DNA of 64,000 bases from Escherichia coli (GCF_011045215.1 NZ_CP049201.1); one strand, 5' to 3'; positions 1 to 11,422 are shown, counted from the first letter of the stretch. The notes: generated from the sequence alone by a model not told the origin. Numbers and translations: made by a program.

Positions 1-288
1 TGTTCCAGTAAGTTTCTGGCTGAAAACATTCGTACTTCGAGTAAAATTTTACTGAAACATGTGTTTTCAGACAGAAGTTTTTTCTTTATCAGACTTTCAC
101 TCATATATACATATTCAGATATATCGCGCAACTTCCATTGTCGTGATATATCTGACAGTAATATGTTTCGTACTTTTCCTGAAAAAGTTGGGATGCCAGA
201 TGAAAGGAAGTTTATTAAAGCGGGGCGGGTATTAAAAATTGACAATAACGAGAAACAGACAGCTTCTCTGAATTCCGGATGGATATGA
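1..288 (+). other. Partial ORF entering from the left edge (C-terminal fragment, unknown function)
   Basis: Frame 1 is open from nt 1 to the stop at 286-288; no recognisable motif; AT-rich. Confidence 0.2.
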
Positions 289-780
289 TTTTCATAATTT
301 ATATTGTTTATGAGTTCTGACAACACTTCCGGGTAGGCAAAACATTTTTTCAGAAAATGAACAGGCCCGTCGTAGGTTGGTTTTTCCCCTGTATGGCGAT
401 GGTGTATATAATGGTTTACTGTATCTTCATTCAGAGGTACTTCAGTGAATTTATCTGAAAATGTAAGAAAGCTTGTCATCAAAGATGGATTAACAAGAAG
501 AATATCGCCATAATTTAATATTAATACATCATTAAAAAAACGGAAATTAAATGATCTTTTTATCAGTATGAAGGAGCAGATGATAGTCATAATTCTTTGC
601 GCTGTTACAGTTTTTTATTTATGTAAGTATGGATGAAGGGAAAAAAAAGGAAAAATATTTTGTTTTTTTGTGATTGCTGTCACGTAATAAATAAAAAGCA
701 ATTGATTATATTGCTGTATTGTGCTGTAAAGAAGAGTTAAGCTCTGTCTGGTACTGATTTATTCCGGGGGACGGAGGGGC

Positions 781-1569
781 ATGGCAGATGAAGGGATGAA
801 CAGGGACTTTTTGTTTAATTCGTTGACAGCAACAGTCATAAGAGAAAGCAACAATTCACATATGGGGCAGTTTATGAAAACTATCTTCATAGCAGAGCCT
901 GTCGTGACGGCAGGTAACAGTAACAGGCTGATTGCGGTGGAGATTCTGAGCCGATTTTATTCTGTTAACGGAAAACAACTTCCTACCGTGAAAACGCTGA
1001 ATATGTTTACAGCAGAGATGAAAATTGATTTGCTGGAATTACAGATAAGAAAAATAATAAGTAAAGCTTCTTTTTTTAGTAAGCATAATATACTGTGTTC
1101 CCTTAACGTCGATTATGATACATGTCAGTATATATACAGAAATAAAAATATTCAGGATATAATAAAGTCATATGATTTTATTGTTCTTGAAATTTCTGAA
1201 ACATACCCGGTCATAAAGGCTGATGATGCAATAATTCCTTTTCTCATTAATCTGTCAGAACATATCTGGCTGGATGATTTAGGGAGTGGTAACAGTACAA
1301 TACATACGTTGATAAGAAATAAATTCCAGGCAGTGAAACTTGACAAAAATTTTTTTCAAATACATAGTATGAAACCGCATTTTGCTGCATTAATAGACAA
1401 TATAAAAAGATTATGCCCTCTGGTTATTGCCGAGGGTGTTGAAAACAAGAATTATCTGCATGCTGCTTCAGGTGCTGGTTTATGGGGCGTTCAGGGATAT
1501 TATTTTCCATCAGTACCGCTTGAGGATATTCATCAGATAAAGTTGGATTTTTCTGAGAACATCAGCTGA
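781..1569 (+). CDS. EAL-domain protein, putative c-di-GMP phosphodiesterase (stand-alone EAL); true start may be an internal Met near 862-874
   Basis: EAL-family motifs visible in translation: AVEIL, LEISE, DDLGSGNS, KLDK, AEGVEN, GVQGYYF. Confidence 0.65.
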   Translation: MADEGMNRDFLFNSLTATVIRESNNSHMGQFMKTIFIAEPVVTAGNSNRLIAVEILSRFYSVNGKQLPTVKTLNMFTAEMKIDLLELQIRKIISKASFFSKHNILCSLNVDYDTCQYIYRNKNIQDIIKSYDFIVLEISETYPVIKADDAIIPFLINLSEHIWLDDLGSGNSTIHTLIRNKFQAVKLDKNFFQIHSMKPHFAALIDNIKRLCPLVIAEGVENKNYLHAASGAGLWGVQGYYFPSVPLEDIHQIKLDFSENIS

Positions 1570-1803
1570 TGAGTCTGTCATACTTTTTCTTCCCGGGTAT
1601 ATCCGGGCTGTGTTTAAATATAATAGTCATAAGAAAACTGGTTATTATATTTTCAGGTGAATTTGTTTACATGTTCTGATCGGGACTCGCTTTCAGATTG
1701 CAGGGAGTAATAAAAAGTACTATCACTGCGTATTCCGTTCTACTCTATCACGGATTGGCCCAAACTGTGTCGATTCAGATGCCATTTTGCACTATCACTT
1801 ATT

Positions 1804-2538
1804 ATGAGCTGTTTTTGTATTCATTTTAGCAGCCATCTCCATGATGGTATTGACAGTGGCTGTCCCGGTAAGAAATATGATATACACCGACCATTAAATA
1901 TGCTGGCGTTAAGCTGGCATAATACTTCTGGTCGCTATTCACTGGGGGGAAGTTATCAGAAAGATGATTCCGTGCAAATTTTAGGGGAATTAAATAAAAA
2001 ATTTAAGATCCGTGAAAGAGATTCTGCGAAAAGTCAGTTAAAATTTTTCTACGCTGAACTTGAGGGTTTTAATAAAGAAAAAAAGAGAAGGGCTGGGGAA
2101 CCTGATGATACCTATCTCCTTTCCGGACAGATATCATTTAATACACCTGATTTTGGAGCATTTGTCAGTGCGGGATATATTAATCATGCAATATCAGGAA
2201 CAAATGTAGATACCGATCGTTCTTATGTATATTCTCTGAGTATAGATCGTAATAAAGAACAAATGTACTCTTTTTAGACAGGATTTACATATAACATCAC
2301 ACCAGAATTAAGTGCAATGATGACCCATGGTTATGAATCCAGTCGTAAAGATGTAGAAATACAGGGGGCATGTATTTTGGGAGCAATGACTTACAATATC
2401 AATAATGGACCTAATATATTTCTTTCTGCAGACAGATGCAGAGAAAAAAGAGATGGCAGCCGTTTTGGTGATCGTCTTAATTATTGGGATGTTAAATTAA
2501 GTATTAGGTATGATATATATATATATGATTCTCTGTAA
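1804..2538 (+). pseudogene. Beta-barrel-like ORF interrupted by an in-frame TAG (2275-2277); no signal peptide at N-terminus; likely gene remnant
   Basis: ORFs 1804-2277 and 2317-2538 are in the same frame, separated only by the amber codon; alternating hydrophobic pattern. Confidence 0.3.
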
Positions 2539-2901
2539 AGAGGCAGATGCTGAATCCATTCACCCTGTAGTCCATGATTTCGAATCTGGTAGGGTGTATT
2601 TATAACTGACAATATAATGAGGTAGTTCCGGTTTCTCTTGTGTTTATAAATTTCTCATGTCTTTGTTAAGCAACTGTTTGTATTATTCTGATTGACTTAT
2701 TTTCACTGGTGTTAAGACCACAGGTATTGTCAGTATTCGAACAGTATTTCACGAAATTCTTATACAGTATTGCACGGTTTTCCGGACGTTTAAACTTCAA
2801 ATGGTTAAACTGGCTTCACAACAGGAGCTTCTGTTGTCTGTATTGTTCGAAAATACGGGGATACCGTATTTTCTGAGTTATATTATACAATCTTGTTTTA
2901 T

Positions 2902-10180: not shown

Positions 10181-10237
10181 AATGCGTTCCGGAGGTGAGC
10201 CTTGTTGTTGAACGGATATATTTAAAGGTAAAGAAAT

Positions 10238-11230
10238 ATGAAAACTCACGATGTTGACAGCCTCTGGGATAATCTGATGGATGAGTATTTTTTTTGTAAG
10301 TCGTTACGGAGAGCCACGGAGTGGAGTTATCGCAAGGTGTTGTCGGGGTTCCGGAAGTTTGTTGGTTTTCACCGGACTCCTGACAGCATTGTTCGTCGTG
10401 ATGTTCAGGAATGGCGTCGTTTTGTGCTGAAAGATCAGGGGTTAACTTCCCATACCTGGAATAACAAGGTGAGGCATATGCGTGCGATTTATAACTTTGG
10501 AGAAGAATCTGGGTTGATCACTGTTTCAGAAAATCCTTTTAGTGGCATGCTGGTTAAGCAGGAAAAAAGACGGAAGAAAACGCTGACAAAAGCACAGATC
10601 TCGCGGATTGTGCTTATTCTGCAACAATTTTCGGAAGCAGAAAATCAGTACACCGGACTTTATATCAAATGTGCCATAAGGCCAGCGTGGTTCTGGCTGA
10701 CGGTGGTGAATACCCTGCGTTACACCGGTATGCGTCTGAATCAGTTGCTGCATTTACGCCTAAAGGATGTTTGTCCGGCAGAAAAATGGATCGATTTACG
10801 GGCTGAAGGTAGTAAAACTCACAGAGAATGGCGTATTCCGGTTGCGCGTCAGTTACAGCCACAACTGCAGAAACTACTGGATGAAGCCGTCAGACGGGGA
10901 GCCACACCGGAAGACTATCTTTTCCACTACAAGCGTTTTGTTGTGCCGGTGTCAGAAGCAAAACGTATAACGGGTTTGCCGGATGAGCAGCCTGTGAAAT
11001 CGTTTTTCCGCAGATTATCTCAGGAGTGTGGTTTTCAGGTGTCTCCACATCGTTTCAGACATACACTGGCGAGTATACTGATGAGCACTCCGGAGCGTAA
11101 TCTTCACCTGGTGAAAAACATGCTCGGACACCAGAACGTATCAACCACAATGGGATATGTGGAGATGAATCTGGAGATTGCCGCACAGGCACTGGAGCAT
11201 GAACTGGAGGTGTTCACTGACAGGCTGTAA
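10238..11230 (+). CDS. Tyrosine site-specific recombinase / integrase (330 aa)
   Basis: C-terminal catalytic region HRFRHTLAS ... LGHQNVSTTMGYVE (R-H-R-Y family); adjacent to tRNA-Phe. Confidence 0.85.
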   Translation: MKTHDVDSLWDNLMDEYFFCKSLRRATEWSYRKVLSGFRKFVGFHRTPDSIVRRDVQEWRRFVLKDQGLTSHTWNNKVRHMRAIYNFGEESGLITVSENPFSGMLVKQEKRRKKTLTKAQISRIVLILQQFSEAENQYTGLYIKCAIRPAWFWLTVVNTLRYTGMRLNQLLHLRLKDVCPAEKWIDLRAEGSKTHREWRIPVARQLQPQLQKLLDEAVRRGATPEDYLFHYKRFVVPVSEAKRITGLPDEQPVKSFFRRLSQECGFQVSPHRFRHTLASILMSTPERNLHLVKNMLGHQNVSTTMGYVEMNLEIAAQALEHELEVFTDRL

Positions 11231-11288
11231 TCGCAGACAGATTGACAATCCACTGAAGGGTTGTAATCATATATAGTGATCGAGAAAA

Positions 11289-11313
11289 GGGAGCATGCGG
11301 CAAACATGCTCCC
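11289..11313. terminator. Hairpin between integrase and tRNA-Phe (possible int terminator or att-region structure)
   Basis: Perfect 9-bp inverted repeat GGGAGCATG / CATGCTCCC with 7-nt loop. Confidence 0.35.
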
Positions 11314-11422
11314 TTTCGAGAAGAAAAATCATGATGTACATGAACCAGACTCACGACATCTGACACCTTCCCGATGACACCCGTCAGGTTTCTCACTCCT
11401 GACCAGTGGCTTTGATGTAAGG

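Follow-up and report, generated by a model that had tools for sequence, protein, structure and literature searches.

Positions 1-11422 of a 64,000-nt stretch of Escherichia coli NZ_CP049201.1 (GCF_011045215.1), called the window below, are best explained as the end nearest to the tRNA of an ICE (integrative and conjugative element) of the ICEEc2/PAPI-1/pKLC102/SPI-7 kind (MOBH; GI-type, MPF-G) that is inserted into the 3' end of the tRNA-Phe gene pheU. We assign a probability of roughly 0.85 to this reading. It is based on gene identities, family links and breakpoints that are directly visible, as well as on the lack of an internal attachment (att) site in the window. Elements of this kind are already well known, while the cargo set and the chimeric relaxase gene (traI) of the present one were not found described in the literature searched. 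The correct label matters: from an ICE, in contrast to a static pathogenicity island, one expects mobility, use of either Phe tRNA site and recombination with resident relatives. The comparisons drew on 5,426 complete E. coli genomes (RefSeq) as well as on draft assemblies; loci fetched from either carry L numbers.

The pheU boundary and the integration module

The tRNA-Phe(GAA) gene is intact and located at 11423-11498 on the minus strand (ARAGORN; Rfam tRNA model 68.3 bits). The Rfam search returned tRNA only, i.e., no other RNA family matched. Since the genes to its right are yjdC/dicD, dsbD, cutA, dcuA and aspA, the site is pheU. A 20-kb query starting at 11400 matched over at least 80% of its length in 5,405/5,426 complete genomes, and homology to the backbone started at 11422/11423 in all best alignments. 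That is, foreign DNA abuts the 3' end of pheU exactly and the E. coli backbone begins at 11423. An earlier interpretation of the window by a model that had only the sequence at hand (the sequence-only reading) had let the K-12 backbone resume exactly at tRNA-Phe, which is hereby corroborated.

With regard to the insertion itself, the attR side is visible, i.e., foreign DNA is found from the first base past the intact tRNA 3' end, and attL is outside the window. The attR core comprises the 3'-terminal 49 nt of tRNA-Phe (11423-11471), and the ICE of strain UMNK88 has a further copy of exactly these 49 nt at its distal end. The sequence-only reading had looked in vain for another tRNA 3' end, and neither did we find one: searching the whole 64 kb with a 23-mer and a 16-mer (at most 3 mismatches) identified only the tRNA itself, and local alignment of the 49-nt core to 1-11400 yielded a best score of 13, which is chance level (shuffled mean 12, maximum 15).

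Only one integrase gene is present in 1-11422 (10238-11230, plus strand, convergent with the tRNA gene). It encodes a simple Xer-like tyrosine recombinase of 330 aa (catalytic domain Pfam Phage_integrase) in which the residues R..HxxR..Y are visible. Its best NCBIfam and PDB matches are XerA, XerC and XerD, and its homologues are XerD-like proteins in Klebsiella, Pantoea, Erwinia, Pectobacterium, Yersinia, Serratia, Salmonella and Xenorhabdus. Neither an arm-binding domain nor P4-type features were matched in Pfam and NCBIfam, where the N-terminus gave only weak SAM-like Pfam matches. Integrases of ICEEc2-type ICEs and PAPI-1 form the Xer-like IntKX subgroup (PMC8138268), and we consider the enzyme to be probably IntKX-type, an assignment made by DNA identity to ICE-borne copies and not by an IntKX profile. 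A GC-rich hairpin followed by TTT, read from the sequence 3' of the gene (11289-11316, plus strand), is a probable terminator.

The integrase gene is preceded by two overlapping genes. The first encodes an SF1 UvrD-like helicase of 504 aa (7108-8622, plus strand; Pfam UvrD-helicase, UvrD_C, UvrD_C_2 and AAA_19), whose length and position match those of the ICE relatives. Its stop codon overlaps the start of traI by 8 nt, i.e., both genes are translationally coupled. TraI itself (8615-10180, plus strand, 521 aa) belongs to the MOBH relaxases: with 206.9 bits it exceeds the curated cut-off (161.4) of TIGR03760 ('ICE relaxase, PFGI-1 class'), and it contains the Pfam domains TraI_2 (E = 3e-20) and TraI_2_C (E = 1e-17). 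The C-terminus matches PDB 2IPQ (E = 7e-22), i.e., protein STY4665, which we take to be encoded within SPI-7 of Salmonella Typhi. Homology to UMNK88-type elements begins at 7008-7010, such that the region shared with the relatives starts about 100 bp upstream of the helicase start codon. This region (7008-7107, plus strand) thus marks the start of the family-wide core and presumably has a promoter role for helicase-traI. Helicase, TraI and Int are all full-length, with lengths as in the relatives.

The helicase also matched PADLOC models of the defence protein GajB. We rejected this candidate, given that no GajA partner exists and that the gene is traI-coupled in every ICE; the match is taken as generic SF1-helicase similarity. 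Family searches otherwise agreed with all gene calls of the sequence-only reading (EAL protein, autotransporter, MarA-like regulator, helicase with a partner, integrase), and TraI could be named as the partner.

The block 7008-11422 is full-length in 21/5,426 complete genomes and partial in 75 more. It is always chromosomal and adjoins pheU or pheV. The cadC side and pheU are contiguous, i.e., the site is empty, in 3,749/5,426 complete genomes, among them OkiPb01695 as the closest relative by backbone. On these counts, we rejected the scenario named by the sequence-only reading as its refutation, namely an ancestral arrangement that K-12 has lost.

One further observation concerns the chromosomal side of this site. 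A 160-bp frameshifted integrase pseudogene is located between cadC and the att position, both where pheU is empty, in OkiPb01695, and where the UMNK88 ICE has its far end (L012 5467-5626 and L017 14644-14803, i.e., beside cadC and outside the window). It looks like what is left of an island that occupied pheU before the ICE.

Relatives and the expected remainder of the element

We read the left flank of the block in the five complete genomes UMNK88, VG35A2, RM11911, KE41 and F2_407_2_2. In 5/5 cases, 7008-11422 turned out to be the right end of a complete ICE, with elements of 66-80 kb; this is the outcome of the comparison with other pheU/pheV islands that had been proposed along with the sequence-only reading. 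The gene order starts with ParA, a 'SPI-7-type island replicative DNA helicase', ParB, an STY4528-family protein, topoisomerase III, an STY4534-family protein, Ssb and PilL, continues with TIGR037xx/PFL_47xx ICE proteins, TraD, the conjugative ATPase and TraG, and ends with an Integrase_1-domain protein, (ArdC), DUF1281, an N6-methylase, variable cargo, helicase, TraI, Int and tRNA-Phe. MPF-G transfer genes (TIGR037xx, TraD, VirB4-like ATPase, TraG) are present in all five. UMNK88 and VG35A2 also have the maintenance module (ParA/Soj, DnaB-type helicase, ParB, Ssb, topoisomerase III), of which RM11911 and F2_407_2_2 show a part. The element of UMNK88 (65,598 bp, NC_017641 4,885,823-4,951,420) is bounded by the 49-bp repeat of the tRNA-Phe 3' end, and its distal copy adjoins the same flank that meets pheU at empty sites. 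The VG35A2 element (~80 kb) is located at pheV.

Every complete relative features a variable, AT-richer cargo slot of 7-26 kb between the N6-methylase and the helicase. Likely defence genes were observed in three of these slots: nucleotidyltransferase, ThiF/E1-like, MPN and SAVED genes in UMNK88 (L001 8743-14392), an Eco57I-type methylase along with a DNA adenine methylase in KE41 (L020 41099-45016), and a pair of AAA ATPase and DUF4435 in F2_407_2_2 (L022 5104-7078). Because of this content, the slot upstream of the helicase behaves like a hot spot that collects adhesin and defence genes.

The cargo of the window itself is found in draft genomes. As an exact look-up of the RamA-like protein revealed, many draft E. 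coli show the order tRNA-Phe (pheU/pheV), Int, TraI, helicase, RamA-like regulator, autotransporter, porin, MFS_2 transporter, GH2 glycosidase, EAL protein and AraC-type regulator. Among these are L025 (GCA_054857545.1, pheV), L028 (GCA_012378815.1, pheV) as well as L029, L036 and L041 (GCA_021516685.1, pheU). To the left of the same cargo, L036, L040 and L041 encode two ORFs (open reading frames) of unknown function, N6-Mtase, DUF1281, ArdC, Integrase_1, TraG_N and TraU. That is, draft relatives with this cargo also show transfer genes, which in the window strain would fall left of base 1. Altogether, all nine relatives with a readable left flank (5 complete, 4 draft) carry ICE backbone or transfer genes there, and a full ICE backbone is therefore likely to lie left of the window.

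The part beyond base 1, as well as the activity of the element, is predicted here from these relatives. Read leftward from the tRNA, the layout within the window is attR, Xer-like integrase, TraI, the coupled UvrD-like helicase and the cargo slot, the latter holding (from the tRNA side outward) the RamA-like regulator, the autotransporter, a remnant of a glucuronide operon, the EAL protein and the AraC-type regulator. By analogy with relatives carrying the same cargo, the N6-methylase should follow ~3.5 kb beyond base 1, and past it we expect DUF1281, ArdC, the Integrase_1-domain protein, TraG, transfer genes, ssb, topoisomerase III, ParB, DnaB and ParA. A 49-bp attL (TGGTGCCCGGACTCGGAATCGAACCAAGGACACGGGGATTTTCAATCCC) would be located beside yjdQ'-cadC at a distance of ~60-80 kb from pheU. 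The sequence-only reading had likewise put the distal end and further genes beyond the left edge, and the relatives' elements, which extend 66-80 kb, support this by analogy.

Judging from the family, Int would recombine attL with attR via their 49-nt cores such that an excised circle results. TraI would then nick oriT and the coupled helicase would unwind the DNA, while one strand is exported by the element's own GI-type type IV system. In the recipient, Int would re-insert the element at pheU or pheV. Since decay is common in the family, we put the chance that this particular copy is still self-transmissible at somewhat below even.

Composition and recombination junctions

The island is uneven in composition. 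GC contents are 35% (1-3000), 48% (3001-5000) and 38% (5001-7007) in the left part, followed by 55.8% (7008-9670), 41.8% (9671-10180) and 47.1% (integrase gene). The mean for 1-7007 is 39.7%, compared to 52.0 +/- 4.4% for the backbone (500-bp windows), and 7/44 island windows are below the lowest backbone window. The sequence-only reading had called 1 to ~6900 strongly AT-rich, 7100-10200 GC-rich and the integrase intermediate. The last of these is right, and the first applies to the mean but not to the autotransporter body (3001-5000), such that the left block is not evenly AT-rich. The GC-rich block exists for 7008-9670, although it is barely richer than the chromosome given 55.8% vs. 52.0 +/- 4.4%, and it ends already within traI at ~9670, where the GC content at third codon positions (GC3) drops from 0.55-0.63 (7008-9670) to 0.35 for the TraI C-terminus.

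Does the step at ~7000 mark a junction between separately acquired segments? In L028, each 150-bp step from 5501 to ~8200 is 99-100% identical to the window without any drop at 7008, and L025 is collinear with 1-9666 at 97.95% identity. Because cargo and helicase are thus shared as one piece, the GC step is best read as the cargo/core boundary and not as a recent junction. Furthermore, the UMNK88 ICE alone spans from 35% GC (cargo) to 60% GC (core), so patchy composition is a trait of the family. The lesson for composition-based island dissection is that the GC step marked the border between cargo and core within one element, while GC analysis failed to reveal the actual recombination junctions, which lay in other places, save the one inside traI.

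Two such discontinuities were found in the pheU island, which is foreign and mosaic as the sequence-only reading had stated. The left one is a clean 4,072-bp deletion at 1841 with regard to L036: 1501-1841 aligns to L036 10628-10968 and 1841-2300 to L036 15040-15499, i.e., with a 1-nt overlap. The deletion took the genes for a GH2 beta-glucuronidase-like protein and an MFS_2 transporter along with ~550 nt from the 5' end of the gene for a UidC-like porin, all of which are still present in L024, L026, L028, L029, L031-L033 and L036. It is common to the window and L025 (pheV). In undeleted relatives, its left end is the centre of a perfect palindrome (AGCCATCTCCA/TGGAGATGGCT). The remnant of the porin gene (1841-2538, plus strand) is a pseudogene, i.e., a 3' half split by a frameshift into two ORFs (1804-2538) that match positions 199-329 and 349-420 of the 421 positions of the UidC profile; the intact porin of the relatives has 414 aa. 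The lost segment represents a second, ICE-borne glucuronide-utilisation cluster.

The right discontinuity is a crossover zone between two ICE lineages inside helicase-traI (~8200-9666), which was located by sliding-window identity. L028 is at least 99% identical up to ~8200 and only 87-97% thereafter, whereas L004 and L008 are at least 99% identical from ~9400 on; between ~8200 and ~9400, no fetched relative is closer than 85-99%. All loci that share the cargo, which carry an NC101-type integration module, lose homology at 9666. They have the other allele of the module, with an Int of 352 aa that is 52% identical to the 330-aa Int of the window, and align to 9667-11422 with ~74% identity over 8% of the length only. 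The same segment is 99.7-99.9% identical to L004-L010 and 98.1% identical to UMNK88, with 99.9% identity to L005-L010 for the integrase DNA. Within TraI, residues 1-350 are ~93% identical to NC101 TraI and the remainder is far more diverged. The switch point (~9666, TraI residue ~350) is the same in all comparisons (8615-10180 in the window, L021 13611-15266), and it coincides with the GC3 drop at ~9670.

Since 1 to ~8200 and ~9400 to 11422 track different lineages, the island is a within-family recombinant, in which cargo and helicase come from one lineage and TraI C-terminus and Int from another. TraI is accordingly chimeric, i.e., its N-terminal relaxase domain and its C-terminal TraI_2_C domain have different closest relatives. 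The mosaic thus arose within the element family, with AT-rich cargo beside a core of 55-60% GC, and its steps were the 4,072-bp deletion at 1841 and homologous recombination in helicase-traI at ~8200-9666.

At least two deeply diverged alleles of the integration module exist in E. coli elements, both at tRNA-Phe and each with its own TraI C-terminal domain. One may speculate, and we regard this as rather doubtful, that the TraI_2_C domain, the integrase and the att-proximal non-coding DNA form one exchangeable, co-adapted integration cassette, whose alleles are swapped between ICE lineages by crossovers in traI, giving chimeric relaxases. If such a cassette is functional, the TraI C-terminus must match something within it, e.g., an oriT or an Int/excision complex close to att. 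In that case, excision and the start of transfer would be coupled through the cassette.

Alternative origins and known elements

Some observations weigh against an ICE end at pheU. The window ends inside the cargo, so attL, transfer genes and partition module lie outside the sequence seen, and the left flank is predicted from draft relatives at 98% identity. An oriT and the mobility of the element are likewise predictions from the family. No complete RefSeq E. coli genome holds more than 44% of 1-12500 in one place, and 7008-9666 (helicase/TraI-N) as a whole is at most 96% identical to any fetched relative. Finally, decay is frequent among the relatives: RM11911 shows frameshifts, KE41 an inversion bounded by insertion sequences (IS), and ~75 genomes have truncated modules.

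The most probable alternative is a remnant. That is, a decayed or merely mobilisable island might have kept module and cargo while its transfer and partition genes were lost or broken, such that it could at best be excised and mobilised in trans by a related ICE. The deletion and the pseudogene in the cargo would fit, as do the frameshifts, IS insertions and inversion of the relatives and the ~75 genomes that hold a partial module only; also the related ICEKp2 excises but without efficient transfer (PMC6761156). Nevertheless, we consider a remnant unlikely, given full-length helicase, TraI and Int and given that 9/9 relatives with a readable left flank show backbone or transfer genes. The classical P4-integrase pathogenicity island of the LEE or GI-pheV type, with helicase and TraI as unrelated cargo, has pheU/pheV as its usual sites (PMC11537424), and a P4-like integrase remnant is found beside cadC in the relatives examined. 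A P4-like integrase would have about 400 aa and an arm-binding domain at its N-terminus. But the sole integrase of the island is the Xer-like one described above, lacking any P4-type or arm-binding domain match, and the relaxase passes the curated ICE model, which leaves this option with next to no weight.

The sequence-only reading had proposed that two or more acquisitions built up at one tRNA site, with a split at ~6900-7100, i.e., an AT-rich adhesin/regulator island and a GC-rich helicase/integrase island stacked by serial site-specific integration at pheU. The sharp GC step at ~7000 suggests this, and both the EAL segment (116-1654) and the autotransporter segment (2788-5594) occur alone on plasmids and on islands at other sites. 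However, an array of this kind should show att repeats, full or degenerate, between its modules and usually several integrases, and the window holds no att remnant between the blocks and a single integrase, and cargo and helicase are inherited together across the supposed border with 99-100% identity in other strains, at pheU as well as pheV. In addition, the same position is the cargo slot in every complete ICE of the family that we examined. We thus dropped this part of the sequence-only reading as very improbable and retain the ICE end as the preferred explanation.

Among known systems, ICEEc2-type ICEs insert at pheV and pheU (PMC11537424), move from one E. coli strain to another and are able to bring about Hfr-like transfer of chromosomal DNA (PMC13127887). 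ICEEc2 was reported from E. coli BEN374 (Roche et al. 2010, as cited in PMC11537424, PMC13127887 and PMC8138268). As far as these citing papers describe it, it agrees with the element studied here in host species, tRNA-Phe target and an Xer-like (IntKX-type) integrase next to the tRNA, as well as in the PAPI/pKLC102-type relaxase and the backbone seen in our element's relatives; the likeness is one of description and not of sequence identity. In contrast to ICEEc2, our element has a chimeric traI, and no description was found of its RamA-like/autotransporter/glucuronide/EAL/AraC cargo. ICEKp2 of Klebsiella pneumoniae HS11286, reported as the closest relative of ICEEc2, is like the latter a PAPI-like element at tRNA-Phe and shows integrase-dependent excision; it differs by two integrase genes and a conserved 28-gene cargo (PMC6761156). 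The nearest Klebsiella integrase homologue that we found is 59% identical to the integrase of the window. More generally, SPI-7, PAPI-1, ICEclc and ICEHin1056 share one core (PMC5812530).

The UMNK88 ICE has the same site, the same attR and a cargo slot at the same base. It is 95.6% identical over 7008-11422 as a whole, with the 98.1% of TraI-C and Int contrasting with only 94% for helicase/TraI-N, and its cargo is wholly unlike that of the window, i.e., an inverse autotransporter along with the nucleotidyltransferase/E1-like/MPN/SAVED set. The converse holds for the drafts L025, L028 and L029/L036/L041: they share cargo block and helicase with the window (with ICE backbone visible to the left in L036 and L041) but have the 352-aa Int allele and a diverged TraI C-terminus, and most keep the genes for glucuronidase, transporter and porin.

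SPI-7 of Salmonella Typhi, which itself sits at pheU, resembles the island in its insertion at a tRNA 3' end and in STY4665, the homologue of the TraI C-terminal domain. Also the relatives' backbone is annotated with SPI-7-type DnaB and with proteins of the STY4528 and STY4534 families. SPI-7 is nevertheless much larger and carries Vi capsule genes and the SopE phage, and the similarity is at the protein level only.

Cargo genes and further observations

As one block, the cargo of the window is in no complete RefSeq E. coli genome, where only single pieces occur alone. Its gene next to the core encodes a RamA/MarA/SoxS-like small AraC activator of 112 aa (6365-6703, minus strand), which reaches 155.6 of the 180 bits set as cut-off for the RamA model; annotated RamA proteins of Klebsiella, Scandinavium, Siccibacter and Pluralibacter share 52-58% identity with it. 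The exact protein adjoins the helicase in 8/10 places listed and is indexed in 426 blocks of the assembly collection. E. coli is not known to have a native ramA. A mobile RamA-like copy might therefore alter the regulation of AcrAB-TolC efflux and, together with the intact adhesin of the same cargo, such cargo genes could matter for adhesion as well as efflux regulation.

This adhesin is an AIDA-I-type autotransporter of 850 aa (2997-5549, minus strand; TIGR01414 barrel domain 399.7 bits). It matches the families AIDA-I, MisL and ECSE_1600, and an identical protein is recorded with Pfam Pertactin, AC_1 and Autotransporter. Found alone on plasmids of bovine strains and on another island, the respective segment is 87-97% identical and often a pseudogene. 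Downstream of the stop codon, a perfect 17-nt inverted repeat with a 10-nt loop (2899-2942, 100% complementary) is a probable terminator. Between autotransporter and RamA-like gene, annotations under two matches suggested a PapB/FocB regulator (~5600-6069), which we rejected since the window has no such ORF there. A weak match at 5878-6038 (78% identity) falls under a partial transposase annotation in strain C5.

The stand-alone EAL-domain protein (781-1569, plus strand, 262 aa) matches NCBIfam EAL phosphodiesterase families with at best 84 bits, i.e., below cut-off; RM8082 and C5 carry this gene under the annotation EAL domain protein. In complete genomes, its segment is also found alone in other islands and on one plasmid, which has 214 kb. 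In other islands, one of them at a tRNA-Ile near mug in strain C5, the segment adjoins PapB and chaperone-usher fimbrial operons as well as IS66 (loci L013, L014, L034-L037). It thus looks like a mobile fimbrial-regulation cassette.

At the left edge, the first ~196 codons of an AraC-family regulator are visible (1-590, minus strand; open frame and AraC HTH), which starts with an ATG at ~590 and runs off the window. At the same position, L036, L038, L040 and L041 encode an AraC-family regulator of 246 aa (HTH_AraC), and 1-600 is 98-98.5% identical to these loci. An earlier candidate, i.e., plus-strand 1-288 as the 3' end of an AraC gene, was rejected given this minus-strand gene.

To reach the left flank of the window strain, exact look-ups of the EAL protein (four alternative start codons) and a metagenome scan with a 30-mer from positions 31-60 were done, both without a match. 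The sequencing run SRR11014969 contains two short-read contigs (L003, L011) that are 100% identical to 1625-5921 and 5895-11451, and because of this identity we take it to be the same strain or clone. Its contigs break at ~1625, at ~5895-5921 and inside the tRNA, which suggests that these stretches are repeated elsewhere in that genome. Within the backbone part of the window, a single tRNA-Gly(GCC) gene is located at 40667-40742, where OkiPb01695 has two in tandem; the tandem tRNA-Gly array thus seems to vary in copy number.

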